From contig OZ220733.1 of the NCBI GenBank assembly GCA_965116875.1, positions 1,984,001 through 2,048,000 of the forward strand: a stretch of 64,000 nt of DNA. Direction: 5' to 3'. This DNA comes from Candidatus Latescibacterota bacterium (GTDB lineage: Bacteria; Latescibacterota; UBA2968; GCA-2709665). Of this stretch, positions 7,340 to 54,700 are shown piece after piece. The position numbers and the translations under genes are program-made. The stretch's first letter is position 1. Every line of letters begins with the position of its first letter. The notes under the pieces were generated by a model. It saw nothing but the letters and a program-made list of their open reading frames with translations, was not told the origin of the DNA and ran no database searches.

Positions 7340-7368
7340 GGAGTGACCGTAAACGGGGTCATAGCGGT

Positions 7369-34930: not shown

Positions 34931-35524
34931 ATGCGTGACCAACCCGAAGAAATCTTCCGCCGGCACGGCGGCCAACTTCGCATGAGCGAAGCCCTGGCGT
35001 ACGGGATCTCGCGCTACTCGCTCTATATGCTGCGGGACCGGGGCATCGTGGAGCCGGTGAGCAGGGGGATCTATCGGCTGGCGGAACTTCCTCCCATGGG
35101 CAACCCGGACCTTGTGACGGTGAGCCTGCGCTTCCCGAAGGCTGTAGTCTGTCTCGTCTCAGCGCTGGCTTTCCATGACATGACAACCCAGATCCCTCGA
35201 GCAGTTTCCGTGGTGGTGCCGCGCGGGTCGCGTCCGCCTTCGTTGGACTATCCGCCGGTTCGGGCGCACAGGTTCTCTACGCAGGCATACGAGCACGGTA
35301 TCGAAACGCATCTAATGGATGGTGCGGAAGTCAAGGTCTACAGCCGCGAAAAGACCCTCGCCGACTCGTTCAAGTTCCGCAACCGGATCGGCATGGACGT
35401 GGTACTGGAAGCGCTGCGCCTTTACAGGGGACGACATGGCTTCAATCCAGGCGCCGTGCTGGGCTCCGCCAGGGTTTGCAGGGTCGAGAACGTGATGCGA
35501 CCCTATCTTGAGGCTATGCTGTGA
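34931..35524 (+). CDS. Type IV TA / AbiEi-family antitoxin
   Basis: GGQLRMSEA...GI...VSRGIYRL, VVCLVSALAFHDMTTQIP, VYSREKTLAD.FKFRNRIGMDVVLEAL. Confidence 0.88.
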   Translation: MRDQPEEIFRRHGGQLRMSEALAYGISRYSLYMLRDRGIVEPVSRGIYRLAELPPMGNPDLVTVSLRFPKAVVCLVSALAFHDMTTQIPRAVSVVVPRGSRPPSLDYPPVRAHRFSTQAYEHGIETHLMDGAEVKVYSREKTLADSFKFRNRIGMDVVLEALRLYRGRHGFNPGAVLGSARVCRVENVMRPYLEAML

Positions 35525-39784: not shown

Positions 39785-42700
39785 ATGTCCGAACTCGAGG
39801 CAGGAACGGTCGTCGACGGGTGTTACGAGATCCTGGCTACAATTGGCAGCGGTGGGCTGGGTACCGTATACCGCGCGCGTGACGTAAACGATGACGCCAC
39901 GGTGGCGCTGAAGATGTTGGATATCGTGGGAGACGAGGCACAGCGGCGATTCCTCAGGGAGTTCAATATTCTCTCGAGAATTCGGCATCCCCGGTTTGTC
40001 CGGTCCCACAAATGGGGACTCCATGCCGGGAAGCCGTACTTTTCCATGGACTATATTCGCGGTCACCCCCTATCCGACCTGATCGCCAGCGCGGAAGAGC
40101 TCGAACGGCTGAGAACGGGGTGGCTCGTTCCACTCATCCGGCAGATCGGAGAGGGGATGGCTTATATCCACGAACAGGGTGTGGTGCACAGGGACCTGAA
40201 GCCAGCCAATATCATGGTTTCGCAGAATCGCGGGACGCCCGAGGTTACGATTCTGGACCTTGGCTTAGCACGTTTTCGAGATTCGAGTGGACAATGCGTG
40301 ACGCCGCCGGGTACTCCTACCGGGACCGCGGAGTACATGTCTCCCGAACAGATACGAGGACGACAGCCTGACCAGAGGTCCGATTTGTATTCGCTGGGCA
40401 TCGTCTTGTACGAGATTCTCACCGGGAAACCACCCTTCACGGCCGAGAATCCGGCTTCGGTGATGTTCCAGCATTTGAGAGACCTGCCCCCACCGCCGCG
40501 CCAGTCTAACGGCGGTGCTTCCGCCGCGATTGAAGAATCAGTCATGAAACTGCTGGAGAAAGAGCCGATCGACCGCTACGACTCGGTGTGGAGCTTGTTG
40601 CGCGATCTACCAGTAGGCAAGGACGGGAGATTCGCCAAAGAGTTCGTTTCACCACTTGCTGCGAGTCGGCCGGTGCTATTCTTGCAGCCGAAATTTACAG
40701 GGCGGGAGCGTGAGAAGAAGGCCCTCCGGGAGATCCTGAGGGAAACCGGACGCGGATTTGGGCGCATGGTCCTGGTGAGCGGTGAGGTGGGAATCGGGAA
40801 ATCCGAGTTGTTGGAGGAGTTCCGGGCCGACGCACGCGTTCACGGAATGTGCATCCTGAACGGGTGCTGCTACGAAAGCGGCACACGTGCTTATGGTCCG
40901 TTCCTGGAAGCTTTGGAGGCTCTAGCGGACAGGAGGGGTATCGACGGCTTGGATCTCGAAAGGGAGGTGGAACGTGTCCTAGCGCAGTTTGAACGGCCGA
41001 CAGACGGGAATCAGACAGATCCTTACGCTTTAATGGAGATTCTCTGTGAATTCCTTGTCGACCTGAGTCGGAAGGCCCCTACCCTTATTTTTATTGAAGA
41101 TTTACAATGGGCAGACGACTTGACCGTTCGGTTCCTGGACTTTATGAGGAGGAATCCGGACCCGGCGCCCCTAGTCTTCGGGCTTGCCTGCCGCAAAATG
41201 GACGAAGAACCGCTGCCCCCGGATATTGACCAGTTGACAGAAGGGCCGAATGTAACTGGTGTTGTACATTTGCAACTCGAGCCCCTCGATTTGGAGGAAA
41301 CAAGCAATCTTGCTGCGTCCCTTGTTGGCGAGCGGGGGGTTCCCGAGTGGGAAACCTGCAGAATTTTCCAAGAGACCGGTGGAAATCCTCTGTTTGTGGT
41401 CGAACTTATCCGCGGCTCAATTGAAGAGGGCTTGATATGGAGGGATTCGTCAGGCATATGGAGGTGGCCGGAATCTACGGAATGGCCGATGCCTCAAAGC
41501 ATTATGCAAGCCATCGGGTCGCGTCTTGGAAGTTTGCAGCCTGTCCAGAAGCATGCGCTGGAGTTTGTTTCGATATTTCGCGGCGCGATTTCGTTTGACC
41601 TGATTTCAGCGGTCTGGCACGAGAATGAACTACGGTTGTTGGAGGTTCTGGAGGTACTTGTCCGCCTGGGTCTTCTGAGAGCCCTAGAGGACCGTGAGGG
41701 ACGGTACCGGTTTTCACATGCATTGATCCAGCGAGCGGTTTACGCGGGTGCGGTGGAAGAGAAGCGACAGTTGCTTCACCTGAAGGTTGGAACGGAACTG
41801 GAGAGACGTTATGTGGCAGGCGACTCGGAGACCTTGGATGAATTGGCCTATCACTTTTCGAGATCGGACGATCTAAAAAAAATGGCGCGGTATCTGACGG
41901 CTTCCGGCCGTCTAGCGTTGCGGATGCATAATTTTTCACACGCAGTCGAACAGTTCGAAGCGGTCAATAACAATAGGGGCGTTTTCTCGTCAGATGATCA
42001 TAAGGAGATTTCCCGGGGATCCGCGATGCACCTGGAGTTTCTTTGCGCCTACGCCGAAGGCCTATCTGGATGCGGGCGGTTTGAGGACGCTCGGCACCTG
42101 TTGGATGAGGCAATGCCGTGGGTCTCAAGGCAGACCCAGGCTCAGAATGCACACGTCTTAAAGGTTCTGGGGATAAACCACATACATTTGGGGGAATATA
42201 ACAAGGCCGTGTCCGTGTTTTTGGAAGCGTTGGGAAATTTCCGAAGATTAGCTGACAAAGAGAACGAACTGGCCTTATTGGGACTATTGTCAGATGTATA
42301 CATAGCCTTAGAAGATAATGTACAGGCGATACGATATTGCCATTCTGCTGCGAAGAAATGTCGGGAAATGGGAGGAGAAATAAACGAAGCGCGGTCACTG
42401 ATGTATTTGGGATTCTCGGAAGTTTTCACATTCCATAACAGCAGGGCGAAAACACTTTTGGAATCTTCGTTGGAATTGCTGGATCAGGAGGGTGACCGAG
42501 TCTACCGATATACCAGTTTGTACTTGCTGGGGCGTATTGAGTTTAGGCTGGGCAACTTAGACAGGGCTGGAGATATATTCAAGGAACTTCAAGCGTACTG
42601 GTATAGACGCGGATCGAGCGATACTGAAGCTGAGATGCACATTCGCTTAGGTAGGGTTGACCAGGAACGGGGAGAAAAAGAGAAAGCGGAGGGGCACGCA

Positions 42701-44656
42701 CGTGCCGCGGAGCGGCTATTGACTGGTAAGAAGAGCGGGGAAGGATATTTCAGGGCCTGTTCGTTGCTCGCCGAAATTACGGCTGAAACTGGCCGCGTTA
42801 ACGAAGCGCTAGCTTGGTCCAAAAAGGCCTTGCCCGGCCTGGAGTACGGCGGGAATGTACGCGCCGTTGCCTGGGCCGCGAAGGCAAAATCGCTTGCCGC
42901 GGCTGGGCGTCACCGAGAAGTCGATAACCTCTTTGTTCATGTATCGAAGGTTCAGTGTGAGCCAAAAGGGCTAGAACAGGTATATCTGGTTCTAATTGCA
43001 GGCGAATACTACCTACGGAGGGGGCGTCTTTCCGCTGCACGGCTGACCTTGGAGGAGGCAAGAAATGCCGCCGAAAAGATGGAGATGTGCCATTATGCCC
43101 GGAAAGCAGCGGGATTACTGAAGAAGATCTTTGAGGTGGATTGTCTGATGTCGCCAACATCGGAGAGTTCCTCCTCGCTTTCGCAGGAGCACCTCCTGAC
43201 GCTTTACGAGGCTTCTGAGGACTTGACGTCGATCCTGGACCTGAACGTGCTTCTGGACCGGATTCTGGACCGCCTGAAGATGGTGAGCCGCGCCGAACGC
43301 GTGTTGATTGCTCTCAAGGATGACTCGGTAGATCAAGTGGAAGTCGCGCGACGGCATAACCTGGACGACGTGGAGACACACGAGATCAGCCGGGGAATCA
43401 TCAAATGGTCGATGGATCGAAACGAGCCGGCATTGAGCCTGGATGCTCGCACCGACGAGCGTTTCAGGCGAAGGGCGAGCGTTACGGATTACGGCATCCG
43501 TTCGGTGCTCTGCGTACCCCTACGGCACGCGGAGTCAGGCGTAATCGGCGCGCTCTATATGGATCATAGAAAGCTTGAGGATCTATTCTCCGATGAGGAT
43601 AGAGCCCTGTTTTCGGGATTTGGAAATCTGGTGTCGATTGCAGTCGTCAACGCCCGAAAGTATTCTAAGATCCAGGAGCGAACGACTTATTTGCAGAAGC
43701 GGCTTGAAGAGCGCGGACGTCTGGAAAAAATGGTAGGGGCGAGCCAAGTAATGCAGGAGGTGTTCAATCTCGTCGAGGTCGCGTCGGAAGGTGATATTAC
43801 CGTGTTGATCCAGGGCGAGACAGGAACGGGCAAGGAACTGGCTGCCAGAGCCGTCCACGCCCGAAGCGAACGCAAGTCGAAGCCTTTCCTTTCCGCGAAC
43901 TGCGCTGCAGTGACTCACGAACTCCTTCAGAGCGAATTATTCGGACACAAGAAGGGTGCGTTTACCGGGGCGTCGTCCGATCGGAAAGGATTGTTCGTTT
44001 CCGCGGACGGGGGAACGGTATTCCTGGACGAGATCGGGAATGCGTCCCCACAGTTGCAGTCGAGCCTGTTGCGCGTGCTCCAGGACGGAGAAATCCAGCG
44101 GGTGGGCGAGGCAGAGGTGCGGAACGTGGACGTGCGGGTGATCGCGGCGACGAATCGCGACCTGGAAGCGGATGTGCGCAACGGGCTGTTTCGGGAGGAC
44201 CTGTACTACAGACTGCGAGTGTTGCAGATCGAAATGCCACCCCTTCGCAGGCGTATCGAGGATATTCCATTGTTGTGTGATGATATTTTAACGCGCGTGT
44301 GTTCTAACGGGAATAAGGTCGTAGCAGGATTTACGTCCGGGGCCATCCGGGCATTGATGGACTACAATTGGCCGGGTAATGTGAGGGAGCTAGAAAACGA
44401 GATCAGGCGGGCGGTGGCGTTGGTGGAGGAAGGCGAAAACGTTTCGCCCGACTTATTCTCCGATAACATAAGGCTTATCTTACGATCAAATCCGATTGAG
44501 CAGAGTGAGTTCAAAGCACGAGTCGCTTCCTTTGAGAAACGGATGATAGTCGATGCGCTCGACCAGAGCGGGGGCAACATCACTCGTGCCGCCAGTCAAC
44601 TGGGTCTAAGTAGAAACGGACTTCAAAAGAAGATGACCCGGTATCAGCTGAGGTAA
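39785..44656 (+). CDS. Ser/Thr kinase - STAND/AAA ATPase - TPR - GAF - sigma54 activator (bEBP) - Fis HTH fusion
   Basis: IGSGGLGTVY, HRDLKPAN, DLGLAR, GTAEYMSPEQ; GEVGIGKS, IEDLQWAD, GGNPLF; GAF (SVLCVPL...GALYMD); GETGTGKE, SELFGHKKGAFTGA, FLDEIG, FREDLYYRL, WPGNVRELEN; GNITRAASQLGLSR. Confidence 0.93.
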   Translation: MSELEAGTVVDGCYEILATIGSGGLGTVYRARDVNDDATVALKMLDIVGDEAQRRFLREFNILSRIRHPRFVRSHKWGLHAGKPYFSMDYIRGHPLSDLIASAEELERLRTGWLVPLIRQIGEGMAYIHEQGVVHRDLKPANIMVSQNRGTPEVTILDLGLARFRDSSGQCVTPPGTPTGTAEYMSPEQIRGRQPDQRSDLYSLGIVLYEILTGKPPFTAENPASVMFQHLRDLPPPPRQSNGGASAAIEESVMKLLEKEPIDRYDSVWSLLRDLPVGKDGRFAKEFVSPLAASRPVLFLQPKFTGREREKKALREILRETGRGFGRMVLVSGEVGIGKSELLEEFRADARVHGMCILNGCCYESGTRAYGPFLEALEALADRRGIDGLDLEREVERVLAQFERPTDGNQTDPYALMEILCEFLVDLSRKAPTLIFIEDLQWADDLTVRFLDFMRRNPDPAPLVFGLACRKMDEEPLPPDIDQLTEGPNVTGVVHLQLEPLDLEETSNLAASLVGERGVPEWETCRIFQETGGNPLFVVELIRGSIEEGLIWRDSSGIWRWPESTEWPMPQSIMQAIGSRLGSLQPVQKHALEFVSIFRGAISFDLISAVWHENELRLLEVLEVLVRLGLLRALEDREGRYRFSHALIQRAVYAGAVEEKRQLLHLKVGTELERRYVAGDSETLDELAYHFSRSDDLKKMARYLTASGRLALRMHNFSHAVEQFEAVNNNRGVFSSDDHKEISRGSAMHLEFLCAYAEGLSGCGRFEDARHLLDEAMPWVSRQTQAQNAHVLKVLGINHIHLGEYNKAVSVFLEALGNFRRLADKENELALLGLLSDVYIALEDNVQAIRYCHSAAKKCREMGGEINEARSLMYLGFSEVFTFHNSRAKTLLESSLELLDQEGDRVYRYTSLYLLGRIEFRLGNLDRAGDIFKELQAYWYRRGSSDTEAEMHIRLGRVDQERGEKEKAEGHARAAERLLTGKKSGEGYFRACSLLAEITAETGRVNEALAWSKKALPGLEYGGNVRAVAWAAKAKSLAAAGRHREVDNLFVHVSKVQCEPKGLEQVYLVLIAGEYYLRRGRLSAARLTLEEARNAAEKMEMCHYARKAAGLLKKIFEVDCLMSPTSESSSSLSQEHLLTLYEASEDLTSILDLNVLLDRILDRLKMVSRAERVLIALKDDSVDQVEVARRHNLDDVETHEISRGIIKWSMDRNEPALSLDARTDERFRRRASVTDYGIRSVLCVPLRHAESGVIGALYMDHRKLEDLFSDEDRALFSGFGNLVSIAVVNARKYSKIQERTTYLQKRLEERGRLEKMVGASQVMQEVFNLVEVASEGDITVLIQGETGTGKELAARAVHARSERKSKPFLSANCAAVTHELLQSELFGHKKGAFTGASSDRKGLFVSADGGTVFLDEIGNASPQLQSSLLRVLQDGEIQRVGEAEVRNVDVRVIAATNRDLEADVRNGLFREDLYYRLRVLQIEMPPLRRRIEDIPLLCDDILTRVCSNGNKVVAGFTSGAIRALMDYNWPGNVRELENEIRRAVALVEEGENVSPDLFSDNIRLILRSNPIEQSEFKARVASFEKRMIVDALDQSGGNITRAASQLGLSRNGLQKKMTRYQLR

Positions 44657-44708
44657 ATCATGGATACAATAAGAGGTTTACTGTAGATGGTGTGCGGGTT
44701 GACACGGT

Positions 44709-44750
44709 CGGTGACGTCGACGATGTTGTCACCGTTTTAACCGTTTGATA
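44709..44750. promoter_or_regulatory. Candidate bEBP upstream activator sequence plus IHF site
   Basis: CGGTGAC-N12-GTCACCG dyad (44709-44734); minus-strand TATCAAACGGTTA (44738-44750) matches WATCAANNNNTTR. Confidence 0.55.
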
Positions 44751-44919
44751 TTTAAAAATATATAAGCGTCAAAAGGGTTAAATCGATAGCGTGCATCGGT
44801 GATATGTATACATTGTATACGCTACTCAGATAATTGATTCTATATAACAGAACAACGACAACCGCTATATTTGCTTGATTTATCGCGTCTGTGTGCAAAC
44901 ACAGGCGTTTTTTCTGTTT

Positions 44920-44935
44920 TGGTACGAAGTTTGCG
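44920..44935 (+). promoter_or_regulatory. sigma54 -24/-12 promoter
   Basis: TGGTACG-AAGT-TTGCG with exact GG-N10-GC spacing, directly downstream of a bEBP gene. Confidence 0.8.
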
Positions 44936-45030
44936 TTGAAAAACTAGCGCAAATATACGATTGCCTTTTGCTATTAGCCGTATACACGTCCGAAAGCAAG
45001 TATATCCAACCCACTCAATCGAGGCCAACA

Positions 45031-45225
45031 TTGAAACGAGATCAAACCGATCATTTGCTGTTCTCAATCAACGCGGAAATTGACAGGACTGGAAGAATCC
45101 AGGGTTGTTTTGCATCGCCGACTCCGATTGAAGATCACGTCTGTGGATGGCCACGTTTTCCCATATTACCCCCGCCGATGACAACAGAAGCAACTCTTGA
45201 AGCTCACACTAGGTTGTCTGTCTGA
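45031..45225 (+). CDS. Putative RiPP precursor peptide, 64 aa (TTG start)
   Basis: GAGG 6 nt before TTG; MKRDQTDHLLFSINAEIDRTGRIQGCFASPTPIEDHVCGWPRFPILPPP...; first ORF after the sigma54 promoter, 39 nt before the radical SAM gene. Confidence 0.6.
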   Translation: MKRDQTDHLLFSINAEIDRTGRIQGCFASPTPIEDHVCGWPRFPILPPPMTTEATLEAHTRLSV

Positions 45226-45264
45226 AGAGTGAGCTAGTCCGATTATTTCGATCGACATTGAAGG

Positions 45265-46752
45265 ATGCTAGAATTGATGAAGATCACAAGATCGGAAATA
45301 CATCTATTCAGGACGCGCGCAAACGCGCGTGCGATTGCCTTTCAGGTTAACACCGGGCTATTTTTTGGGTTAAGCGAGCTTAGCGAGTCGGTTTTGAGAA
45401 AGTCTCAGGTGTTTTCGGACGGAACTGTAGCAGTCGAGCTAGGTCGTGAAATTGATCGAAGAGAGGTGCTGAATGCGATCGGTGTACTTTGTAAAGTAGG
45501 GCTAATTAATGTTGGGTGCGACGGACTGCATCAGATATGTATACCGAGCGATACAGGGGTTTGTACAAACCAAGAGTCTGCTGGGAAGGCAGATCAATTT
45601 CATATAACGCTTCACGTCGCGCACACGTGCAATGTCAAGTGTGCATATTGCTTTGCTCACGGCGGGGATTATGGCGGTTCGCCAAGACTAATGCGGCCCG
45701 ATGTCGCACGGCAAGCTGTGCGTTGGGCTTTACAGGAGGCAAAGTCATTCCAGAGATGCCAGATTGACTTCTTTGGTGGTGAGCCACTGCTTAATTTCAA
45801 ACTGATTCGAGAAATTATCCCTTACGCCCGCGAGCATGCCGATTTGGTTGGCATTGCCGTATCATTTGGAATTGCAACAAACGGCACTGTGATGTCGCCG
45901 GAGATACTTGAGTTTCTGATCGATCAGGAAGTACAGATTCAAGTAAGCATCGATGGCACCGTGAAAGATCAAAACCGACTTCGTAAGTTTCACGACGGAA
46001 GCGATACATACGATGTCGTTGCTGAAAACGTGACGAAGTTGATGGATAGATCGCCTGATAGTGTATCTGTCCGTGCAACAATGACGTCCTACAACGTGGA
46101 CCGGGAGTCCATCGTGAACGGTTTGGCTCAATTTGGCGCATCCCGCGTGGAAGTAGCTCCGGTTGTGGCTGCGCCTCACGAGCCTTTTGCGTTTCGAGAG
46201 GAACATCTCCCTGCAATAAAGCAGAAACTCTGCGAGCTAAGCAGGTATGAGACGGAAAAAATCCTTGAAGGATCGAAGGACCGAGGGTTTTTCGACGATT
46301 ACATGGAGAGGTTAATGACACGTGCGAAATCTTGTTATGGCTGTCAAGGTGGACGCACATTTTTCGCGGTGGACGTTGATGGAGACATCTATTTTTGCTC
46401 AAGTCTTGCCGATCGGCCGGAGTTTAAGATGGGCGATGTTTTCTCTGGTCTTGACAAAAATGTCCAGAATGGATTCAAAGATTCGTTCCATATCGATTCC
46501 CGTTCCGACTGCCGGCGGTGCTGGGCAAGAAACCTGTGCGGAGGGGGATGTATATATGATGCCCGAACTGCAACAGGGGACCCAATAAAGCCGAACCCTG
46601 TCTCCTGCGAGCAGATCCGTTACAGCTATGAACTCGCCATGGAAATGTGTATGGAGATTCAGAGCGCAAACGAGACTTTGTTGCACGAGAGATACAATCT
46701 AACGTGGGTTGATGCAGACGGCGAATCGTGGGACGACGATTCTGTCAAATGA
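45265..46752 (+). CDS. RRE-radical SAM-SPASM peptide maturase (QhpD/PapB/SCIFF-maturase-like)
   Basis: N-terminal RRE-like HLF...FQVNTGLFFGL; CNVKCAYC; FFGGEPLLN; SIDG; CYGCQGG...VDVDGDIYFC; CRRCWARNLCGGGC...C. Confidence 0.92.
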   Translation: MLELMKITRSEIHLFRTRANARAIAFQVNTGLFFGLSELSESVLRKSQVFSDGTVAVELGREIDRREVLNAIGVLCKVGLINVGCDGLHQICIPSDTGVCTNQESAGKADQFHITLHVAHTCNVKCAYCFAHGGDYGGSPRLMRPDVARQAVRWALQEAKSFQRCQIDFFGGEPLLNFKLIREIIPYAREHADLVGIAVSFGIATNGTVMSPEILEFLIDQEVQIQVSIDGTVKDQNRLRKFHDGSDTYDVVAENVTKLMDRSPDSVSVRATMTSYNVDRESIVNGLAQFGASRVEVAPVVAAPHEPFAFREEHLPAIKQKLCELSRYETEKILEGSKDRGFFDDYMERLMTRAKSCYGCQGGRTFFAVDVDGDIYFCSSLADRPEFKMGDVFSGLDKNVQNGFKDSFHIDSRSDCRRCWARNLCGGGCIYDARTATGDPIKPNPVSCEQIRYSYELAMEMCMEIQSANETLLHERYNLTWVDADGESWDDDSVK

Positions 46753-46878
46753 CGAATCGAAGGGCCGATTGACCGTGGCTTTTTGACCGATAGATGCCCG
46801 CTCTCGTTGAGAACACGTCGTTTCCATCATGAAAACGGGTCATGGCTCTTGCGGGAACAATCCCGGAAATTTACGAAA

Positions 46879-47457
46879 ATGGCAATTGGGTTTCGTTGGT
46901 CATGGATTCCAAACGGTACTGTCGTCCTTCTGATATTCGTAAACGTGACTCTCGCGGCAATAGTGACATCACGACATTTCGAACTGAAACGACTTCAAGA
47001 AGAAGAACAAAACAGTCTACATGAGAATTTCCCGCCACTGAAAAGGACCCAAGTCAGTTCGTACCTTAATCAGCTGTTTCCAGGTTCTGTGGAATTTGAT
47101 CATGCGACCTTTGGGAAAACGATAAAATATCGGGTTTATGACCAAACAACACTGCTTGGAAATGCCTATCAAGTCCGAGAAGATATCCATTGCCCGGTCT
47201 GCAGGGATGTAAGGTTTTTCATTGGTGTGGATATTGACAACATTATTTCTGGTATTGTTCTGGTTAACCCATTCCACTTCTATGGCGAACCCCTAAAAGC
47301 CGAAATTGTAGATGAATTTCTCGGTCAGTTTCTCAATAGGCAAGTTAGTGATCAATTGCACCTTGGCAGTAACATTCACGGAATAACCGGGGCAACCAAG
47401 ACGGTTGAGCATTTTCTGGACGGAGTCGTTGGAATTCAAAAATTACATTTCGAATAG
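46879..47457 (+). CDS. Membrane-anchored FMN-binding (flavinylation substrate) protein with CxxC
   Basis: N-terminal TM; HCPVC; FLGQF; HGITGATKT fits the [S/T]GA[S/T] flavinylation motif. Confidence 0.75.
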   Translation: MAIGFRWSWIPNGTVVLLIFVNVTLAAIVTSRHFELKRLQEEEQNSLHENFPPLKRTQVSSYLNQLFPGSVEFDHATFGKTIKYRVYDQTTLLGNAYQVREDIHCPVCRDVRFFIGVDIDNIISGIVLVNPFHFYGEPLKAEIVDEFLGQFLNRQVSDQLHLGSNIHGITGATKTVEHFLDGVVGIQKLHFE

Positions 47458-47462
47458 ATACA

Positions 47463-48080
47463 ATGTTGAAAAAGAAAAAGTTGTACTGGGTGATGGCAGT
47501 TCCAATATTGGTGTTAAGTGCCATCCAGTTAGCGACAACCGTTGATGATCTGGGACAAGAAATCACTAATGCCAAACTAATCCGAGATCGTGGCAAACGA
47601 ATTGAGGAATTCTTCACTGAATCAGTTCCAATTGGGTCAATAGCGCCGTCCTTTCAGTTACGGTCCGTCAAAGGAAAATTGGTTTCGTTTGATCCTAGTG
47701 CATCGAGATTTTCCTTACTTATTTTCTTTAATCCAACGGACTGTTCATGGTGTCTGCTTGAGTCGTCGCTCTGGCGGGAAATCGATTCCATCTACGACGA
47801 AGATCAACTAACCATCCTTGGTATTACAACCGAGGAAGGCCTCAAAGATCGAGATGTCGTGCTTTTTTCCAAAGGGAGAGAGTTGAATTTCCCAATTCTC
47901 CGATGTGAAGATAGTGAACTCATTAAGGCATATGGAATTACCCATACACCAACTCGGATCCTTGTCGACGACTCAGGACGAATTCTGGATGCTGGTTCCT
48001 CTACTCATAGTACTCAACGGCACACGAAGTTTAAAGAGAAGATCGCGCTCTTGTTGCGTCGAGAATTGAACACTCCCTAG
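47463..48080 (+). CDS. Membrane-anchored redoxin (AhpC/TSA/TlpA-like thioredoxin fold)
   Basis: IGSIAPSFQLRSVKG, IFFNPTDCSWC, YGITHTPTRILVD..GRI. Confidence 0.82.
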   Translation: MLKKKKLYWVMAVPILVLSAIQLATTVDDLGQEITNAKLIRDRGKRIEEFFTESVPIGSIAPSFQLRSVKGKLVSFDPSASRFSLLIFFNPTDCSWCLLESSLWREIDSIYDEDQLTILGITTEEGLKDRDVVLFSKGRELNFPILRCEDSELIKAYGITHTPTRILVDDSGRILDAGSSTHSTQRHTKFKEKIALLLRRELNTP

Positions 48081-48156
48081 CTTGAGCAAGCACTCAAATG
48101 ACGCGCCATGTCCAAAACCGTAACGTTCGTTTCATTCACTCACAACGGAGGTTGTC

Positions 48157-48387
48157 ATGAATCGAGTCTACGTAGTTGTTCGAGGGCTCCTGTTTATCGC
48201 AATTGTATTTTCCTGCTTTACGCAGGCAACCGCGGAAGACTGCGACCCAGAAGTAAATGTATCTGGATGCCAAGGTCCGAACATGGTAATCCAAGCGTTT
48301 GATTGTTGGTCGTCGGATTGCAACTTTCAGGACGAGGACGGAGATTGTTACTATTGTTGTGATGTCGAAACAGGGGAGTGTTTTTAA
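48157..48387 (+). CDS. Secreted Cys/Asp-rich peptide, 76 aa
   Basis: GGGAGG RBS; signal peptide ending A-T-A; 50-aa mature part with 8 Cys, 13 Asp/Glu and no Lys/Arg. Confidence 0.8.
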   Translation: MNRVYVVVRGLLFIAIVFSCFTQATAEDCDPEVNVSGCQGPNMVIQAFDCWSSDCNFQDEDGDCYYCCDVETGECF

Positions 48388-48462
48388 TATCGTTTAGTTG
48401 CCCAATCAACTTCCTCGTCTTTGGACATGGCGCGTTTTCTAACAGTGAGGCTAGTTTGTAGA

Positions 48463-49518
48463 ATGAGAATCGGTGGGTTAAGAAATCTTCCGTTGAGTTT
48501 GTCTCTGATCATCGGTTGTGGGAACCAGGGTGCAAAGCCTTTGTGGATAGAAACAAATACCATGGAGTTGAAGCAGCAACTCACTATTGGGACTAGCGAC
48601 ATAAAAAGGAACGAATACGTCTTCGGGAACGTATCGGACATTAAATGCGATACCGATGGGGATATTTACATTGCCGATGCTGGATTGTTTCGCATTCAGA
48701 AATACTCGTCGAATGGGACCTTCGAAAGGTCCTTTGGAATGGGTAATGGCCGAGAGCCAGGGCAGTTTATGCGATTGATGCATATCGATGTAGACAAAAG
48801 CAAGGACGTATATGCAACAGACTACGCATTGCGCAGAATTACTGTTTTCGATTCTATCGGGATAGTGAAGAATACGATACGAGTCCGTATGAAACCGGCA
48901 CAGATCATCGTCGGACAGAAAGGTTCGATATACATAATTGGAAATCCGATGTCGTATACTGGACCGCTCATACATATGCTCAATTTGCACGGCACATTTG
49001 TGAAGAGCTTTTGTAAGCGTGACGGAATACCGGATTTAGCACTCAAATCGGGAAACTTCGGGTGGTTAGCAACCGACAACGATGGCAACATATACTATAC
49101 ACTTACATATCCGATCGAAATTAGGAAATTCACTGAGGATGGGGATTTATTGGCACGATTCACCCGCCCCGTCCCATTTTTGTCGCCGCCAATCGTGGTT
49201 CGGGCCAAAGGTGGAATGAAAAAAGTCTGGATGGGGAGCGGGTCCATGAATCTCTTCGCACTTCCAGATGGAAAGTTGGTACACCTCATCTACCACCGTG
49301 ATAGAAACAAGCCAGAAATGTATCCAAGATTGTATTTCGACATTTTCTCTCGAAGAGGTGAATGGCTTCTCTGTGTTCCATTGTCGCGCTTAGGATTGCG
49401 GAAATACGGTACGTTAGGTACGGACTTACGTGGTGGTCTTTATGTCAATCACAGAACTCCGTACTCCCGGGTAACGAAGTACTCACTTACTTTCCCAGAC
49501 AATGTTCAAGATTACTGA
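48463..49518 (+). CDS. 6-bladed beta-propeller (NHL-like) lipoprotein
   Basis: Lipobox-like LIIGC; FGNVSDI..D.DGDIYIAD...RIQKYS..GTFERSFG.G.G.EPGQF. Confidence 0.8.
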   Translation: MRIGGLRNLPLSLSLIIGCGNQGAKPLWIETNTMELKQQLTIGTSDIKRNEYVFGNVSDIKCDTDGDIYIADAGLFRIQKYSSNGTFERSFGMGNGREPGQFMRLMHIDVDKSKDVYATDYALRRITVFDSIGIVKNTIRVRMKPAQIIVGQKGSIYIIGNPMSYTGPLIHMLNLHGTFVKSFCKRDGIPDLALKSGNFGWLATDNDGNIYYTLTYPIEIRKFTEDGDLLARFTRPVPFLSPPIVVRAKGGMKKVWMGSGSMNLFALPDGKLVHLIYHRDRNKPEMYPRLYFDIFSRRGEWLLCVPLSRLGLRKYGTLGTDLRGGLYVNHRTPYSRVTKYSLTFPDNVQDY

Positions 49519-49545
49519 CTTCATTACATATTTCATTTGTTAAAG

Positions 49546-50601
49546 ATGGCGAAGAAAACGCAACGAGCAATCGCTAGGACCGATAATACCTGCTTGGCAC
49601 ATGGTCGATTGATCTATATTATGATGTCGTGTTTCTGCATCTGCTTATCGGCCGAAGTTCTGGCTGATGAAATCAGAAGAACGCGCATAATGATGGGAAC
49701 GTCGGTTTCAATAACGATTGATCAAAACTCTTACGAAACGACTGCAGCAATTGACATTGCTTTCCGGGAAATCGCAAGAATCGAACAAATCTTGAGTACG
49801 TATGTTTCCGATAGCCATATTTCAAAGTTAAATCGACTAGGTCGCCTTTCATATCCCCCTATCGAACTACACGATGTAATTTCCCGAGGACTCTACTTCG
49901 GTTTGATTTCTGACGGAGCCTTTGATATTACGATCAAGCCGGTTCTGGACCTATATCGAGAATGTATTCGCACAAAACAACGCCCACCAACGGCTATTGA
50001 ACTTGCTGTAACCACTGCCTTGGTCAACTATCGCAATGTTGCAGTGCATGGAGATTGTATCCAAATACAAAGACGAGGCACTCAAATCACTACCGACGGC
50101 ATCGCAAAGGGATACATAATCGACCGAGCAATTGCGGTTCTTGAGCGGAACGGCGTCGAATCTGCGCTTATAAATATTGGAGGAGACGCTCGCGCGATGG
50201 GCAGGAGATCGAATGGGTTGCCATGGATCATTGCACTACAAAATCCACGAGACCAAGAAGTAAATTTAGCAATTATTCCTCTACAAGATAAGGCTGTAGC
50301 GACTTCAGGAGACTATGAGCGGTACTTTGTACCTGAGAAAACGATACACCATATTGTCGATCCTCGCACGGGTCATTCGGCAACATCATTGATAAGTTCA
50401 ACGGTGATTGCGAAGACAGCCATCGACGCTGATGCCTTGGCGACAACTGTATTTGTGATGGGTCCGGAAAAGGGAATGTCTTTGGTGGAGAGTATTAATG
50501 ACGTCGAGGCACTTGTTGTTACCCGGGGATTTAGGGTGCTGAAATCAAGTGGTCTCACGTTGTTGACTGAGTCATTCAAAAATCCAATCACGCAAGATTA
50601 A
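49546..50601 (+). CDS. apbE: FAD:protein FMN transferase
   Basis: MMGTSVSI, SDGAFDITI, GIAKGYIID, INIGGD, ATSGDYERYF, HHIVDPRTG, ADALATTVFVMG. Confidence 0.93.
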   Translation: MAKKTQRAIARTDNTCLAHGRLIYIMMSCFCICLSAEVLADEIRRTRIMMGTSVSITIDQNSYETTAAIDIAFREIARIEQILSTYVSDSHISKLNRLGRLSYPPIELHDVISRGLYFGLISDGAFDITIKPVLDLYRECIRTKQRPPTAIELAVTTALVNYRNVAVHGDCIQIQRRGTQITTDGIAKGYIIDRAIAVLERNGVESALINIGGDARAMGRRSNGLPWIIALQNPRDQEVNLAIIPLQDKAVATSGDYERYFVPEKTIHHIVDPRTGHSATSLISSTVIAKTAIDADALATTVFVMGPEKGMSLVESINDVEALVVTRGFRVLKSSGLTLLTESFKNPITQD

Positions 50602-50721
50602 CGAGAAATTCAACTATACCGGTCAATGTCATTTGAATGCAGTGTGGGCTCAACATCCCGGGTTATGCTAAGTGGCGTAAATCTAATTTCAGGTTTCGTT
50701 TCTGGCGGATATATTAGGACG

Positions 50722-51756
50722 ATGAAACGCATTTCAACCGTCGTGATTGTCTTGGTGCTGACGATATTTGGCAAGGGTAAGCTGTTGGAGGCGCAGTCCT
50801 CCAACAATGCGGATTTCGATGCCAATGGCATTGTCGAGTTCGGTGATTTCATTCTGTTAGCGCAGGCTTTCGGGACAAATGAAACACGTTTCGACCTTGA
50901 CGGCAGTGGAAAGGTGGATTTTCCCGATTTCATCCTTTTCGCAAAGCGATTTGGCGAGGGCGCGCCGAGAAGGGACATAAGTGTCACGCTTCCAGGTGGC
51001 GCGAAGCTGGATATGCGTTGGATCCATTCTGGGGTATTTCTGATGGGTTCGCCCGTTTCAGAGCCAGATCGCAATGACGACGAGGGTCCTCAGCATCAGG
51101 TGACGATTACAAAGGGGTTTTATCTGGGAAGGTACGAGGTCACACAGCAGCAGTGGGAGAGCGTGATGAATACGCGTCCGTGGCATCGGCGAGGGGAATC
51201 CCAGGATCCTAGGAGAGTGAACTTCCCGGCCTCATATATGGGTTGGGAGGATGTTGAGAATTTCATACGCAAATTGAACGAAATGGAGGGTAAACAGGTT
51301 TATCGATTGCCCACAGAGGCGGAATGGGAATACGCGTGCAGGGCCGGGACCACGACGCCCTGGTCGTTCGGAGACGACTCGACTCGGGTCGGTGACTTCG
51401 CACGTTACTATGAGAACTCTCGGTCAGTAATCGTCTTGGCCGACGGTCGTACGGTTTATGGTAGTCGAGAAGCCCAGGAAACAGGAGGCGTGTTTCCTAA
51501 TCCGTGGGGTCTGTACGATATGCACGGAAATGTCGCCGAATGGGTTCAGGACTACTTGGGACCGTACACGGCACAGCCTAAGTTCGATCCGAAAGGGCCC
51601 GACAAGCCCAGTGGAGATGGACCTCCGGAATACAATCATGTCGTAAGAGGAGGAACTTATTTGGACTATGGGCAGGCATTACGGTCGGCTGCTCGTTGGC
51701 GAGGTTGGGCGGGGAGCATTCGCATAGGATTTCGACTGTTGAGAGAACACAGATAG
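50722..51756 (+). CDS. Secreted dockerin/EF-hand-like plus FGE-sulfatase (C-type lectin fold) protein
   Basis: Signal peptide; ADFDANGIVEFGDF / FDLDGSGKVDFPDF; FLMGS, YEVTQQQW, RLPTEAEWEYACRAG, NPWGLYDMHGNVAEW, RGG...RSA.R...IGFR. Confidence 0.88.
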   Translation: MKRISTVVIVLVLTIFGKGKLLEAQSSNNADFDANGIVEFGDFILLAQAFGTNETRFDLDGSGKVDFPDFILFAKRFGEGAPRRDISVTLPGGAKLDMRWIHSGVFLMGSPVSEPDRNDDEGPQHQVTITKGFYLGRYEVTQQQWESVMNTRPWHRRGESQDPRRVNFPASYMGWEDVENFIRKLNEMEGKQVYRLPTEAEWEYACRAGTTTPWSFGDDSTRVGDFARYYENSRSVIVLADGRTVYGSREAQETGGVFPNPWGLYDMHGNVAEWVQDYLGPYTAQPKFDPKGPDKPSGDGPPEYNHVVRGGTYLDYGQALRSAARWRGWAGSIRIGFRLLREHR

Positions 51757-51794
51757 ATTCCACACACCAAATTAACTGAAGATTCCTCTATTCG

Positions 51795-54700
51795 ATGTAT
51801 GAGGCTTGGAGTTCTGAACTTCAAGTCCGTATTTTTGTGTCATGTACCCTGATCAGATTGATGTCAAATACGCAAGTGATCCCTTTTATGCTGAACGGAA
51901 AACGAACCAACGAATTAGGCGTTCCGGTTTGGGCCGTGTTTTGCATTGTGGCACCTTTCTGGTCCACACAAATTCGTTCAATGGAGACTCGCTTCGTGAA
52001 ATCTCCCATTGGAGCGATTCGCGCAAGTGCCATCCAACGCGGCGAGCGGCGGGCGTTGCTGACCGAGATATGGCTGTCCCGATACGGCGGCGCCAGTCGC
52101 GAAAGGATCAGGACCTACCCGGGCGCGGCGGGCTCGCTCGGATTCCTGCCGGATGGCAGCGCGATCGTCTATCTGGAACGCGGCCTCAGATATCCCGCCT
52201 TCGGGTCGTACCTCTCGGGCGGCCGCAGCCTGCCGATCGTGAAGAATCGGATCTGGGAATTGGCGGTCGACGGATCGGACGAGTCCCGCTGGCCGCTTCC
52301 ACCTGAGCTCAATCCATTGGACCTTGCCGTTTCGCCTGACGGCGATTTTCTCGCGGTACGTGGCGAGTGGGACGCATTGGTGGACTCGGGTCAACCGGGG
52401 CTCTGGAGGGTCGACCGAACGGGACAGGCAAAACAACTCCGGATCGGCAGGACAGCCGGCGCCCCGCGCTGGTCCGGAGACGGCGCCAAAGTCTATTTCG
52501 CCGAGGGCGATACGACGTCGATGGAAGTAAAGTTCGTGCACGTGGAGACCGGAGAGGTGGGTACTGAAACTGCTTCCGACAAAGCCGCCGGCGTTCGCGT
52601 CACTGCTGAGACCCCGCGCTCCAAATTCGAACCCACTCCCGATGCTCGCGAACAGAGTCCCCTGCAAAGAGCCCTGGTCGAGTTGCAGAGAGGATTGAGC
52701 CGGTACAGCCGGATGAACTCGGCCGTGCACCGGGCGGACCGTCACAGAGAAAAGGACGCGCGAAAGGCCGTTGAACGGATGTTTGCGGGGTTCCACAAAC
52801 ATTACAAGGCCCTCCGGATCTCGAAAGCAAGCTGCCTTGCTTACGTGGCGGCGCTGCGCGAACAGCAACTCAGAACCGCTGCCGCCGCGGGGGAACACAC
52901 CTGCCTGGAACACATGCTCGTGTTGAACGACCTGGCAGGGCGCTACGCCGAAAAACACGGCGCCCTTCCAACTGAACACGGTATTCTGTTCGGGTGGTTG
53001 AAACAGAAAGTCGATCTGCATGCGACCGGGGAAGCGGAACTCAGGCGGGACAGGGAAGTCCTGGACATTGTCTTCAGTTGCCCGGCAACTTCCGATTCGG
53101 AGCCGTTGATCGAACATCTCTACAGGCCGGATGCCGCGCCCGGCATGCCAATCCTGGCGTGTTTCAGGCACCCGGACCGGTATCTCCACCTGACGGAAAC
53201 GCCGGATGCACGAAGCCTCGAGGCGGTGGAGATGCGTTCTGAGACGGTCGACTCCCTCTTCGCGGTTGTGGTGCAGCGAACCGGAGAGGACCGGTTGCTG
53301 GAGGCGGCCGCCCTCTTCCAGCTCGTCGCCGTTCAGCGCCCGAAGGACGCGCCTCTCCACATCGAACTCGGCCACGCGTACTACAGGGCGAAAGACTACA
53401 AGCGCGCGATGTGGGCCTTCAAGAAAGCGATCTCTCTACAGGGAGGCGCCAGGGCCTATTACGGCGTGGGTCTGGTCTACGCGGAGATTCCGAAGGAACG
53501 CAACCTGGCCATCCACTATTTCCAGGAGGCCCTCGCCCGGGACCACGGGTACGTGGACGCCCGATATCAGATCGCAAGGCTGCGATACCTGATGAATGAG
53601 TACGACGTGGGCCGTGCGGTCGACCGCGTACTGGAGCTCGACCCGAACTACGCTGACGCCTATCGCCTGATGGGCGAGTGGTACGCCGATTTCTGGAAGG
53701 ACTACGAACAGGCCATTGTCTGGTACACCCGATATATGGCGCTGAGACCCGGCGATTCCAGCCTGCGCAGCCGGCTGGGCGTCGCGTATCTGATGATCGA
53801 AGACTACGAGAAAATCATGGCGAAACTGCTGGGTTTCGTCGAAGAGAACCCCGATGCGATTGAACTCATGCCGATCGTTGCGCAAGCATCCATGAAGCAG
53901 GGAAAGCCGGATATGGCGATGGAGTTCTTCGAGGACTACGTAGCAAAACTCCCGTCTCATGAGCGGGTTTTGTATGAGGACATCCGCCTGGTTTCGTCGT
54001 TAGAGGAACTCGGCGAATTCAACAATACTCCGGAGGCTGAACGCGCCGCTTTCCTGAAACGGTTCTGGAACGACCGGGATCCGGATCTCTCCACGCCTGT
54101 AAACGAACGTTTGCTGGAGCACTACCGCCGCGTCTGGCACGCACTCACCGAGTTTTCGGAAAACAAACAGCCGTGGGACGTGAGGGGCGAAGTCTACGTA
54201 CGTTTCGGAGAACCGGACCACCGCTCCAGGTCCGACCGGCCCAACTACAAACAAAGCCTGGCCGTGCAGCGGGTCAAGGAACGCCTTGCCGCGAACATCT
54301 ACGGCGCCGACGGCATGGGTGAGTCGTTTATGGGTCCCGTCTTTCCGGTTCGCGGCATGCGACGACTGGAGGGTGAATGGTACGAGTTTCGAGAAGCCGA
54401 GACTCCGGGAATTCGTGGGGGTGACGCGGGATCGCCCGGCGAAAGCGGAGGGTCCGCGGGCGGGGATGAGTACTCCGGAGGGGGTGGAGGGTTTGGCGGA
54501 CACGTACCGGTCGCGGACGTTATGGATACCGTGAGGCTTGGTCTCATGGATATGGACAAGCGCCTCGGCTTTGGAGACTATCACCCGGTCACGTCCGGTG
54601 AAGACAGAGGGACGATCCCATGGGAGACGTGGATCTACACCGACGTGGGCGGTGGCATTGAAATCACGTTCACGGACGAATTCGGCGCCGGAACCTATGA

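Follow-up and report, generated by a model that had tools for sequence, protein, structure and literature searches.

The window analysed here is a stretch of 64,000 nucleotides from a Candidatus Latescibacterota bacterium, in which a short peptide frame lies between the gene for a giant sigma-54 regulator and that for a radical SAM/SPASM enzyme. The features of the locus, numbered by position in the window, are as follows.

39785-44656, + strand: regulator of 1623 aa with Ser/Thr kinase, AAA_16 (STAND) NTPase, TPR (MalT-like), GAF, sigma-54 AAA+ and Fis-type HTH domains (Pfam, NCBIfam)
44806-44820, no strand assigned: palindrome GTATACATTGTATAC, a candidate activator binding site about 100 nt upstream of the -24 element
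44885-44908, + strand: 10-pair hairpin with a T-run behind it, just before the promoter; terminator of the regulator gene
44920-44934, + strand: sigma-54 type -24/-12 promoter TGGTACGAAGTTTGC, GG-N10-GC, with GG at 44921-22 and GC at 44933-34
45021-45024, + strand: GAGG ribosome-binding site, 6 nt from the TTG
45031-45225, + strand: putative precursor peptide gene, 64 aa, TTG start at 45031 and stop at 45225
45058-45099, + strand: leader motif L10..I23, inside the peptide gene
45070-45072, + strand: N14 codon, inside the peptide gene
45142-45144, + strand: codon of the invariant C38, inside the peptide gene
45142-45177, + strand: core C38-x-W-P-x-F-P-x-L-P-P-P49, inside the peptide gene
45277-46752, + strand: radical SAM/SPASM maturase with an N-terminal RRE-like domain; the database call of 491 aa fits ATG 45277
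46783-51756, + strand: five closely spaced, co-oriented genes for a 224-aa unknown protein, an AhpC/TSA-type thiol-disulfide oxidoreductase, an NHL-type beta-propeller, ApbE and an FGE-sulfatase-domain protein

The peptide frame shares its reading frame and stop with a 116-aa open reading frame at 44875-45225. The first-pass annotation had argued that the start of this longer frame precedes the sigma-54 promoter and that translation begins instead at TTG 45031, behind a GAGG. Its 64-aa translation was reproduced identically and the GAGG is present; the 116-aa frame contains both the terminator and the promoter in its 5' part, and what precedes 45031 is therefore spurious. As a gene, the 116-aa frame was rejected, its first 52 codons overlapping these two elements. 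All 13 other peptides of alignment A1 have an ATG behind GGAG(G) at the site equivalent to 45031, with the same distance between ribosome-binding site and start codon as in the window. Because the window copy begins with TTG, whereas the 13 relatives compared use ATG, it may be weakly translated, a point against the explanation preferred below.

Among ten pairs of peptide genes, dN/dS ranged from 0.19 to 0.76 and was below 1 in every pair, and synonymous divergence is near saturation between genera. A paralogous peptide elsewhere in the same genome (55% identity, E = 2.3e-14) lies upstream of a 70%-identical maturase. The frame had been described as unannotated, and this holds: none of five start variants of the window ORF is found among about 15 billion predicted proteins, a collection in which the adjacent maturase, unlike the peptide, is present (P0123). 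A protein search with the peptide family returned 264 clusters, and those named by their source are all called ‘hypothetical protein’. In NCBI, records of relatives are labelled Gemmatimonadota or Gemmatimonadetes bacterium, and Candidatus Latescibacteria bacterium. Of the sequencing runs listed for this DNA, two contain the entire stretch and none is an RNA run; runs labelled sponge metagenome share small parts of it, too little to indicate a habitat. Judged from sequence, the frame at 45031-45225 is a real gene that the public gene calls lack and codes for a short peptide, in agreement with the original observation.

The region upstream of the peptide is built in the same way in related loci. 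An xGGYACG-N4-TTGCR element stands 60-122 nt upstream of the peptide start in 14/14 loci, an equivalent hairpin and T-run precede the -24 element in all ten loci inspected by eye, and palindromes containing GTATAC, likewise scored by eye, occupy the same position in the six own-genus-type loci inspected. Of 24 wider loci, 22 encode a homologue of the regulator immediately before the peptide, and the other two are a contig start and a decayed locus. The combination that marks a sigma-54 operon, a GG-N10-GC promoter with an adjacent enhancer-binding protein, is present in the window cassette, and sigma-54-dependent transcription is predicted.

A profile HMM built from the 14 peptides of alignment A1 places a small ORF directly upstream of the maturase gene in 29/29 full-length homologous loci, 15 of which had no part in building it; some of the conservation counts given here rest on sequences picked by this same profile and are to that extent circular. 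A conserved small ORF upstream of homologous radical SAM genes was one of the checks that the first-pass annotation had set for itself. In three more distant loci, with maturases 42-45% identical, the ORF listing shows a single-Cys ORF with an (I/V)N motif ahead of the maturase, and all three also encode a homologue of the regulator.

Across 38 peptides, only M1, N14, C38 and P49 are invariant, and L10, I23, P44 and P47 are kept at 90% or more. The second-genus-type peptides in the databases (n = 119) have an invariant C, N and P..PFP, with exactly one Cys in 105 of them. This pattern bears directly on residues singled out at first sight. C26, one of the two Cys noted there, is replaced in most relatives, including the closest (P0249, Tyr), so that C38 is the sole invariant Cys; of the proposed acceptors E34 and D35, the latter is not conserved and position 34 is occupied by E, K, Q, F, Y or G. 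A part in conserved chemistry was therefore rejected for C26 and for E34/D35 on the 38-peptide conservation. HLLFSIN, taken by eye for a leader motif like those of SCIFF, QhpC and PapA, does coincide with the best conserved N-terminal motif of the peptide, L10-x-x-(I/V)13-N14, and the SCIFF motif KHIKTLN agrees with 62 SCIFF-type precursors found among 63 candidate ORFs. Homology to SCIFF leaders is not detectable, which we count against the explanation preferred below. No homology can be detected behind the echoes of QhpC and SCIFF (hhalign probability of 0.2% against 25 SCIFF precursors, with no PDB, NCBIfam or Pfam match). The comparison with QhpC is nevertheless useful at the level of the pathway, since a QhpE-like protease and an ABC exporter are encoded in sister cassettes. 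The central reading, that of a precursor starting at TTG 45031 downstream of a sigma-54 promoter and serving the adjacent radical SAM/SPASM enzyme, is supported by conservation, synteny and a CteB-like maturase with a candidate RRE-type domain at its N terminus.

The peptide family itself has no match in Pfam, NCBIfam or the PDB. The 38-peptide profile has no PDB match at E <= 10, none of 14 peptides matches an NCBIfam or Pfam peptide family, and the ESM Atlas gave nothing usable, with all scores at or below 0.86. Scans of the peptides at E <= 10 produced stray single matches to WIAG-tail, RepA_N and GH98C, in one member each.

The maturase frame opens at ATG 45265 (495 aa). Its best NCBIfam scores are to SCIFF (254 bits), nif11-rSAM (248 bits), PapB (243 bits) and QhpD (234 bits), all of them thioether maturases, and thioether maturase families are matched by 13/13 members of its clade; QhpD is the top NCBIfam match for some of these (best E = 1.1e-93). 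The window enzyme is below the curated cutoff of every named family, with 254.4 bits against 425 for the SCIFF maturase TIGR03974, 243.4 against 340 for PapB NF047865 and 233.8 against 453 for the QhpD equivalog, although the last match spans positions 17-475, end to end. Because of these cutoffs, the chemistry is not confidently transferable, which we count against the explanation preferred below. The enzyme belongs to a clade of its own on a long stem (52 versus 60 sequences, support 1.0, stem 0.71). Searching the genome contigs with the single maturase gave only two distant archaeal radical SAM genes, and alignment A2 against metagenome contigs gave 80 loci at about 30% identity, which are ordinary SCIFF systems and served as the comparison set.

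The closest solved structure is CteB (5WGG), by profile (E = 3.7e-92, positions 9-452) and by Foldseek (E = 2.3e-27, TM 0.70/0.78, 461 columns). The ten cluster ligands of CteB, in the numbering given in the structural account of PMC10177961, where auxiliary cluster 1 has three Cys ligands, correspond to C122/126/129, C360/378/429 and C416/419/425/448, invariant in 13 clade members, so the CxxxCxxC motif and the SPASM cysteines are kept in the window enzyme. An extra, non-invariant C357 lies near auxiliary cluster 1. At the N terminus, the AF2 model has a beta3-alpha3 domain over residues 4-83 with pLDDT 75-86. The PqqD Pfam model reaches its cutoff in two of four N-terminal domains tested, with no match at E <= 10 for the window copy and its paralogue, and PqqD/RRE Pfam matches are precomputed on several clade members. 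In the window copy, an RRE-type domain is a candidate assignment, going by the AF2 model and the alignment to CteB, and the weak PqqD signal there counts against the explanation preferred below.

Downstream of the maturase, the five genes share a block of low GC content (43-50%, against 51-63% in the flanks) and are possibly members of the operon. They are not conserved across cassettes: only the pair of 224-aa protein and redoxin recurs, at one other locus (G001), and the FGE-sulfatase and ApbE were rejected as parts of a conserved system, being absent from other cassettes. An NHL-type propeller and a thiol-disulfide oxidoreductase are encoded in both cassettes of this genome, and the two propellers have no detectable homology to each other. 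Candidates for processing come from sister cassettes. Two of these, one paralogous and one of the second genus, encode QhpE-like S8 protease fusions that score 143.8 and 140.7 bits against a QhpE cutoff of 165, and 103.7 and 122.9 bits against TIGR04066 (cutoff 200); an ABC exporter lies beside the fusion in the paralogous cassette. Pfam and NCBIfam scans found neither a QhpE-like protease nor an ABC exporter in the window cassette, and the whole genome has only one QhpE-like fusion gene, which also counts against the preferred explanation. The same two libraries, run on ten neighbouring proteins, gave no homologue of QhpA (dihaem), QhpB or QhpG and no cytochrome.

We consider it fairly probable that the cassette specifies a leader-guided RiPP-type pathway with a sigma-54 switch, docking on an RRE and a radical SAM thioether at C38, a proposal read from sequence comparison throughout. 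The peptide would be the first gene of a sigma-54-dependent unit that, from the promoter and the synteny, is presumably switched on by the adjacent kinase/STAND/TPR/GAF enhancer-binding protein. Its leader would be the N-terminal third, L10-x-x-(I/V)-N14-(G/A)-x-x-D-x-x-G-x-I23, which may dock on the RRE-type N-terminal domain of the CteB/QhpD-like radical SAM/SPASM enzyme. The enzyme would then modify the lone invariant C38 in the proline-rich core C-x-W-P-x-F-P-x-L-P-P-P. Family membership makes one intramolecular thioether the most likely product, formed as in SCIFF, PapA and QhpC: C38 would coordinate auxiliary cluster 1 at its open iron, and the acceptor carbon would lose a hydrogen by abstraction. 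Candidate acceptors are the conserved core residues P44, L46, P47 and P49, or the invariant N14. At the short spacing on the C-terminal side that PapA, CteA and QhpC use, the 38 peptides have no conserved residue of the Asp, Glu, Thr or Asn type, which also counts against this explanation. Leader removal and export, as for QhpC, may be the task of the QhpE-like subtilisin fused to a TIGR04066-type maturation domain and of the ABC exporter of sister cassettes; speculatively, the window cassette may borrow both from the paralogous one.

The peptide could also be the substrate of the enzyme without forming any Cys thioether, C38 being converted to formylglycine, as by the anaerobic sulfatase maturase, or serving only as a cluster ligand or handle while a C-C or ether cross-link (to W40, other aromatics or prolines) or an epimerisation is introduced. 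We regard this as unlikely, though several observations speak for it. The enzyme is under all curated cutoffs and in a separate, long-stem clade, and the function of such enzymes is described as unpredictable without very high identity in the passages on function prediction of PMC10288494. The anaerobic sulfatase maturase is its second-best structural match (Foldseek E = 1.7e-16), and enzymes that form cyclophanes or ethers have the same fold. Near C38 there is no conserved acceptor of the acidic, Thr or Asn kind, and C-x-W-P, with its aromatic residue after the Cys, is present in 12/12 own-genus-type peptides. Set against this, the six top family matches are thioether formers, with scores 2.5 times as high as that for the anaerobic sulfatase maturase (254 versus 101 bits; for TIGR03942 precisely 100.7 bits, below the cutoff of 349.45). 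W40 is not kept in the second-genus type, many of whose peptides have no Trp; the sulfatase motif C/S-x-P-x-R is absent from the peptides; and the Cys is the sole invariant side chain with known chemistry in the enzyme clade.

We give less weight still to the idea that the cross-linked peptide, rather than being a free natural product, belongs to a periplasmic complex as a small subunit with a structural or cofactor-bearing role, comparable to that of QhpC, the gamma subunit of quinohemoprotein amine dehydrogenase, and acts with the downstream propeller and redox proteins; this we consider improbable. It draws on the end-to-end match to QhpD, the top family for some clade members, on the proteases and exporter of the sister cassettes, on the propeller and oxidoreductase found in both cassettes of the genome, on the low-GC block shared by the downstream genes and on a Cys and a Trp two residues apart in the own-genus-type core. 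The locus scans, however, gave no QhpA or QhpB homologue and no cytochrome, the two propellers are not detectably homologous and the downstream genes vary from cassette to cassette, while Trp is missing from many second-genus-type peptides and the peptide profile has no PDB match.

It is very unlikely that the product is a real small protein that stays unmodified, as an anti-activator or co-sensor partnering the giant regulator, with the radical SAM enzyme acting on another substrate. Activator, peptide and enzyme are inherited together, and in one near-identical pair of cassettes divergence is highest in the peptide and in the sensor half of the activator, which speaks for such a partnership; but the enzyme has the peptide-binding architecture of CteB, the peptide gene directly precedes the enzyme gene in 29/29 loci, a leader followed by a Cys core is the layout typical of such substrates and there is no other conserved small Cys-containing ORF at the locus. 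That the frame is untranslated and its conservation is that of a structured 5' untranslated leader of the maturase mRNA, as the TTG start and the absence of the window copy from public gene predictions might hint, is more unlikely still, with the frame, the start with its ribosome site and the stop kept in 29/29 loci while the DNA diverges, dN/dS below 1 in all ten pairs and relatives called as proteins in 264 clusters.

Returning to a modified peptide, a further and tentative proposal, which we hold to be rather unlikely as it stands, is that the product signals to the regulator of its own cassette as the cognate ligand: its proline-rich, cross-linked core would bind to the TPR sensor of the kinase/STAND/sigma-54 activator, and the activator would then drive the promoter of peptide and maturase. 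In three families, activator, peptide and maturase stay together as a unit through inheritance, and every paralogous cassette has its own activator and a different peptide core. In the one near-identical cassette pair, pN is 0.139 for the peptide and 0.078-0.124 for the kinase/STAND/TPR half of the activator, and several-fold lower for the maturase (0.021) and for the DNA-binding/AAA+ half of the activator (0.006). The fixed coupling to a giant activator, the several diverged cassettes per genome and, in that pair, the faster divergence of peptide and sensor half together suggest a regulatory role for a radical-SAM peptide. If the proposal is true, each cassette forms a self-amplifying peptide channel private to itself, genomes of the related genus, with their two to three cassettes, have as many orthogonal channels, and the system parallels, with sigma-54 and STAND, the regulators by which Gram-positive bacteria sense peptides through TPR domains.

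In the literature, we found neither an account of these peptides nor one that links a kinase/sigma-54 activator with a radical SAM peptide; the sponge-microbiome papers PMC12993501 and PMC11832590, in their cluster inventories, list antiSMASH ‘ranthipeptide’ clusters only, without precursors. The peptides make up a hitherto unnamed putative precursor family of several hundred sequence clusters that is invisible to current tools, having no Pfam or NCBIfam model, and the standard thioether precursor scorer was trained on Cys-rich peptides with single-Cys cases omitted, according to the account of its training in PMC10288494. A proline-rich core with one Cys would be a clean substrate for a CteB/QhpD-like enzyme without an Asp, Glu or Thr acceptor and could reveal a new type of acceptor.

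Of the known systems, SCIFF/thermocellin (CteA/CteB; Tte1186a/Tte1186) has the maturase of closest structure, similar over its full length including the N-terminal peptide-binding domain, with the ten cluster cysteines kept and the precursor gene directly upstream. Both leaders contain a short, hydrophobic motif of strand-like character with Asn as its last residue, and the single cross-link proposed here has a parallel in Tte1186, which installs one according to the part of PMC10177961 that deals with this enzyme. Unlike SCIFF, with six Cys in 45 residues, the present peptides have one invariant Cys and a Pro-rich core; the window maturase is in a separate clade below the TIGR03974 cutoff; and the cassette is under the predicted control of sigma-54 and a giant regulator and belongs to uncultured lineages of Gram-negative type, not to Clostridia.

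With QhpC/D/E/F, for which the logic of maturation is outlined in the pathway description of PMC7876137, the cassette has in common an enzyme that is QhpD-like end to end, a leader a few dozen residues long, on which enzyme binding presumably depends, and, in sister cassettes only, a QhpE-like subtilisin and an ABC exporter. It differs in having one conserved Cys where QhpC has four, no conserved Asp/Glu acceptors, no QhpA, QhpB or QhpG homologue in the locus scans, and a sister-cassette protease that is fused to a TIGR04066/DUF1611 domain.

The resemblance to PapA/PapB (freyrasin) is on the side of the enzyme, PapB being the third-best family match of the window maturase and, as characterised in the relevant part of PMC10177961, a SPASM enzyme that forms thioethers and whose auxiliary cluster 1 has three Cys ligands. 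The C-x3-D repeats of PapA have no equivalent here, where the residue at +4 from C38 is Arg in the window copy and variable elsewhere. One Cys per precursor is shared with the single-Cys thioether precursors of the KgrA type, a group on which the standard sactipeptide/ranthipeptide precursor scorer was not trained, as its training is described in PMC10288494; KgrC, compared here by description only, is said in the same source to be divergent in sequence from ranthisynthases.

The regulator, finally, has a likeness in another giant kinase fusion: its kinase-STAND-TPR part matches TIGR03903 with 267.5 bits, far short of the cutoff of 705.75. The TOMM system kinase/cyclase fusion proteins of that family sit next to ribosomal-peptide clusters. 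The window regulator, by contrast, has no cyclase domain and ends in GAF, sigma-54 AAA+ and HTH domains, and is therefore a transcription activator.

The 64-aa peptide encoded directly upstream of the radical SAM/SPASM maturase is, as judged from sequence, the product of a conserved gene whose place, after a sigma-54 promoter and before the gene of a CteB/QhpD-like enzyme, is fixed. The ORF listing covers this stretch with a 116-aa frame (44875–45225), within which the first-pass annotation had proposed a start at TTG 45031; translating from this in-frame codon reproduces its 64 residues. Because a hairpin with a T-run and a sigma-54-type element sit in the 5′ part of the longer frame, that frame is artefactual upstream of 45031. 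The proposed start agrees with the other members of our 14-peptide alignment, 13/13 of which have an ATG behind GGAG(G) at the equivalent position. The TTG is probably the reason that the window copy has gone uncalled; none of five start variants of the window ORF occurs among ~15 billion predicted proteins.

Features around the peptide gene
39785–44656, + strand: activator, a 1623-aa Ser/Thr kinase, AAA_16, TPR, GAF, sigma-54 AAA+ and HTH_8 fusion (domain scan)
44806–44820: palindrome GTATACATTGTATAC in the AT-rich spacer after the activator stop
44885–44908, + strand: 10-pair hairpin and T-run, inside the 5′ part of the 116-aa frame
44920–44934, + strand: sigma-54-type promoter TGGTACGAAGTTTGC, GG-N10-GC spacing, eleven bases past the hairpin and T-run
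45021–45024, + strand: GAGG ribosome site, six bases 5′ of the TTG

All 10 loci inspected share one order, with palindromes and hairpins read by eye: activator stop, AT-rich spacer with palindromes, hairpin and T-run, promoter, ribosome site, peptide. The −24/−12 element lies 60–122 nt before the peptide start in 14/14 loci. Of 24 wider loci, 22 have an activator homologue immediately before the peptide, and the other two are a contig start and the decayed G038; each of the three distant loci described below has one too.

The same genome holds a paralogous cassette outside the window (locus L040, G000:C1:257377–274822), composed of an activator, a 72-aa peptide 55% identical to that of the window (E 2.3e-14) and, behind it, a maturase 70% identical to the window's. 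Across 41 genomes of the same order, this one included, a profile HMM built from the 14 aligned peptides finds a peptide ORF directly upstream of every full-length maturase homologue (29/29 loci, E 6.6e-33 to 1.2e-14), 15 of these loci being independent of profile building. The profile has no match at maturase fragments in genomes G017 and G031, or at one locus in G038, where a frame-shifted maturase lies beside transposase-like genes. The G038 locus (L049, about 6900–8300) is a decayed cassette, its maturase split in two frames and its peptide only a remnant. All 10 peptide pairs compared give dN/dS of 0.19–0.76 (Nei–Gojobori). Among 168 genomes of the phylum, the peptide profile matches 20 genomes in 2 of 49 genera, with two to three hits in each second-genus genome, and maturase homologues reach E ≤ 1e-60 in 27 genomes from 8 genera. 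In a large protein database the profile matches 264 clusters (E ≤ 0.01), and among the 120 clusters listed none has a Pfam domain and the few named by their source are hypothetical proteins; several of the peptide counts come from sequences retrieved with the family's own profile.

Alignment of 38 peptides, 32 of them from loci (29 cassettes and the three distant loci) and the rest database representatives, shows that M1, N14, C38 and P49 are invariant and that L10, I23, P44 and P47 are at least 90% conserved. Most of the peptides are of one of two main types. In the own-genus type, ..L-x-x-(I/V)-N-(G/A)-x-x-D-x-x-G-x-I.. precedes P-I-x-x-x-x-C-x-W-P-x-F-P-x-L-P-P-P, and the tail after it varies. 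The second-genus type opens with M-A-T-R-R-K-L-T-L-I-N-G-x-x-D-x-E-G-x-I, continues with about 13 variable residues and C-x(6)-V-P-x-L-P-F-P, and ends in an acidic tail, D-D-D-D-D-W-D-D-F-D. Its 119 database representatives have invariant L, N-G, G, C and P..P-F-P and mostly a single Cys (exactly one in 105, two in 14), figures that are partly circular, as these sequences were selected by profile. The distant loci, in G077, G079 and G080 (maturases 42–45% identical), have an upstream ORF that pairs the (I/V)-N motif with one Cys, in ..(T/S)-L-S-C... The G077 peptide gene (L132, about 6700–6950) is frame-shifted and decayed, running in two frames against its G079 counterpart with a 5-nt length difference. 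Two long repeat proteins, P0254 and P0257, weakly match the leader part of the profile through L-R-L-V-N-G-x-x-x-x-E-G-R-I (E 1.4e-8, summed over 5 repeats); their repeats, which we take to resemble scavenger-receptor cysteine-rich (SRCR) repeats, probably match by chance or strand-motif resemblance.

The family alignment narrows the residues that the first-pass annotation had put forward for cross-linking, two Cys with E34 and D35 as candidate acceptors. In P0249, the nearest relative, Tyr replaces C26, and most other relatives lack this Cys too; position 34 varies among E, K, Q, F, Y and G, and D35 is not conserved. The positions conserved around C38 hold Pro, Leu/Val and aromatic residues, and N14, within the presumed leader, is the one further polar residue that is invariant. 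No conserved Asp, Glu, Thr or Asn stands in the alignment at the short acceptor spacings of PapA, CteA or QhpC.

The maturase frame is 495 aa and contains Radical_SAM, Fer4_12 and SPASM domains; the protein is probably 491 aa with its start at ATG 45277, in agreement with the database call P0123. Its best NCBIfam matches are all Cys-thioether maturases, all below cutoff (bits/cutoff: SCIFF 254.4/425, nif11-type 248.5/518.7, PapB 243.4/340, QhpD 233.8/453), and 13/13 clade members match those families too. Database relatives of at least 37% identity score 327–1141 bits, and after a gap come ordinary SCIFF maturases, none above 248 bits; in a FastTree phylogeny of 112 of the listed proteins, grouped beforehand by their hit-list rank, the 52 high-scoring relatives form one clade (support 1.0, stem 0.71). 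Among solved structures the nearest is CteB (5WGG; profile E 3.7e-92 over positions 9–452; Foldseek E 2.3e-27, TM 0.70/0.78, 461 columns). The ten cluster ligands named for CteB (PMC10177961) align to C122/126/129, C360/378/429 and C416/419/425/448, all invariant in 13 clade members. An AF2 model (mean pLDDT 70) contains an N-terminal beta3-alpha3 domain (residues 4–83, pLDDT 75–86). In two relatives this domain reaches the cutoff of the PqqD/RRE Pfam model, which has no match in the domain of the window maturase or its paralogue. Within the first 60 codons of the gene lies a terminator-like GC-rich hairpin (45314–45333), which may be fortuitous or could reduce transcription of the maturase compared with that of the peptide.

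L040 and its counterpart in another species (L041, genome G009) are 95–99% identical in DNA over most of 17 kb, including the maturase and the AAA+/HTH half of the activator. Identity drops to 86.7% in a 300-nt stretch with the peptide gene and to 68–90% in the kinase/STAND/TPR half of the activator.

Divergence between L040 and L041 by segment (one cassette pair)
Propeller: pN 0.010, pS 0.025
Maturase: pN 0.021, pS 0.066
Peptide: pN 0.139, pS 0.178
Kinase: pN 0.124, pS 0.327
STAND/TPR: pN 0.078, pS 0.261
GAF/AAA+/HTH: pN 0.006, pS 0.040

Since pS is raised, recombination contributes to this divergence. Recombination notwithstanding, a co-diversifying signal–sensor pair would look like this.

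Genes downstream of the maturase vary from cassette to cassette. In the window they encode a 224-aa unknown, a thiol-disulfide oxidoreductase, an NHL-type propeller, ApbE and an FGE-sulfatase protein, in a single orientation; one other locus repeats the unknown and the oxidoreductase, and none of the other three recurs. From the peptide to the fifth downstream gene (44700–51800), GC content is 43–50% against 51–63% in the flanks, and this block may be an acquired unit. An ORF at 34931–35524 with an AbiEi antitoxin-type N-terminal domain (Pfam E 1.9e-12) is unrelated to the cassette. L040 further encodes an NHL propeller, a redoxin, an ABC exporter, a rhodanese and a 638-aa fusion, the only S8/TIGR04066 fusion in the genome. 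Against the QhpE protease model (cutoff 165) its N-terminal S8 domain reaches 143.8 bits, and against the TIGR04066 'peptide maturation system protein' (cutoff 200) its C-terminal TIGR04066/DUF1611 part reaches 103.7 bits. The fusion is also encoded in one second-genus cassette (140.7 and 122.9 bits). Several cassettes have a second, diverged radical SAM/SPASM gene and glycosyltransferases. Such a gene comes right after the first at L043 7548–9029, L134 196–1572 and L042 8310–9701, its best NCBIfam match is QhpD (195 and 112 bits), and the genes after it often encode group-1 glycosyltransferases, a hexapeptide transferase, a methyltransferase and an AraC-type regulator.

A literature search found no description of the peptide family or its regulator coupling, and two sponge-microbiome papers list only antiSMASH 'ranthipeptide' clusters. 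NCBIfam and Pfam peptide families match 0/14 peptides, the peptide profile has 0 hits in the PDB at E ≤ 10, and hhalign gives the precursor a probability of 0.2% against 25 SCIFF precursors. In QhpC, a 28-residue leader is required for QhpD binding, QhpE cleaves it off once the cross-links are in place, and export of the product is by the ABC transporter QhpF (PMC7876137); in CteB, auxiliary cluster 1 is held by three Cys and has a free site to which a Cys of the substrate binds (PMC10177961). We propose that the peptide leader would dock on the N-terminal domain of the maturase, that C38 would bind auxiliary cluster 1 and be joined to a carbon of an acceptor residue, and that, in cassettes having those genes, a QhpE-like protease would remove the leader and the product would be exported. 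Judged against the SCIFF and QhpC systems, the window system falls outside both, its maturase scoring below both cutoffs and its precursor showing no detectable similarity, but by analogy its maturation would work like theirs.
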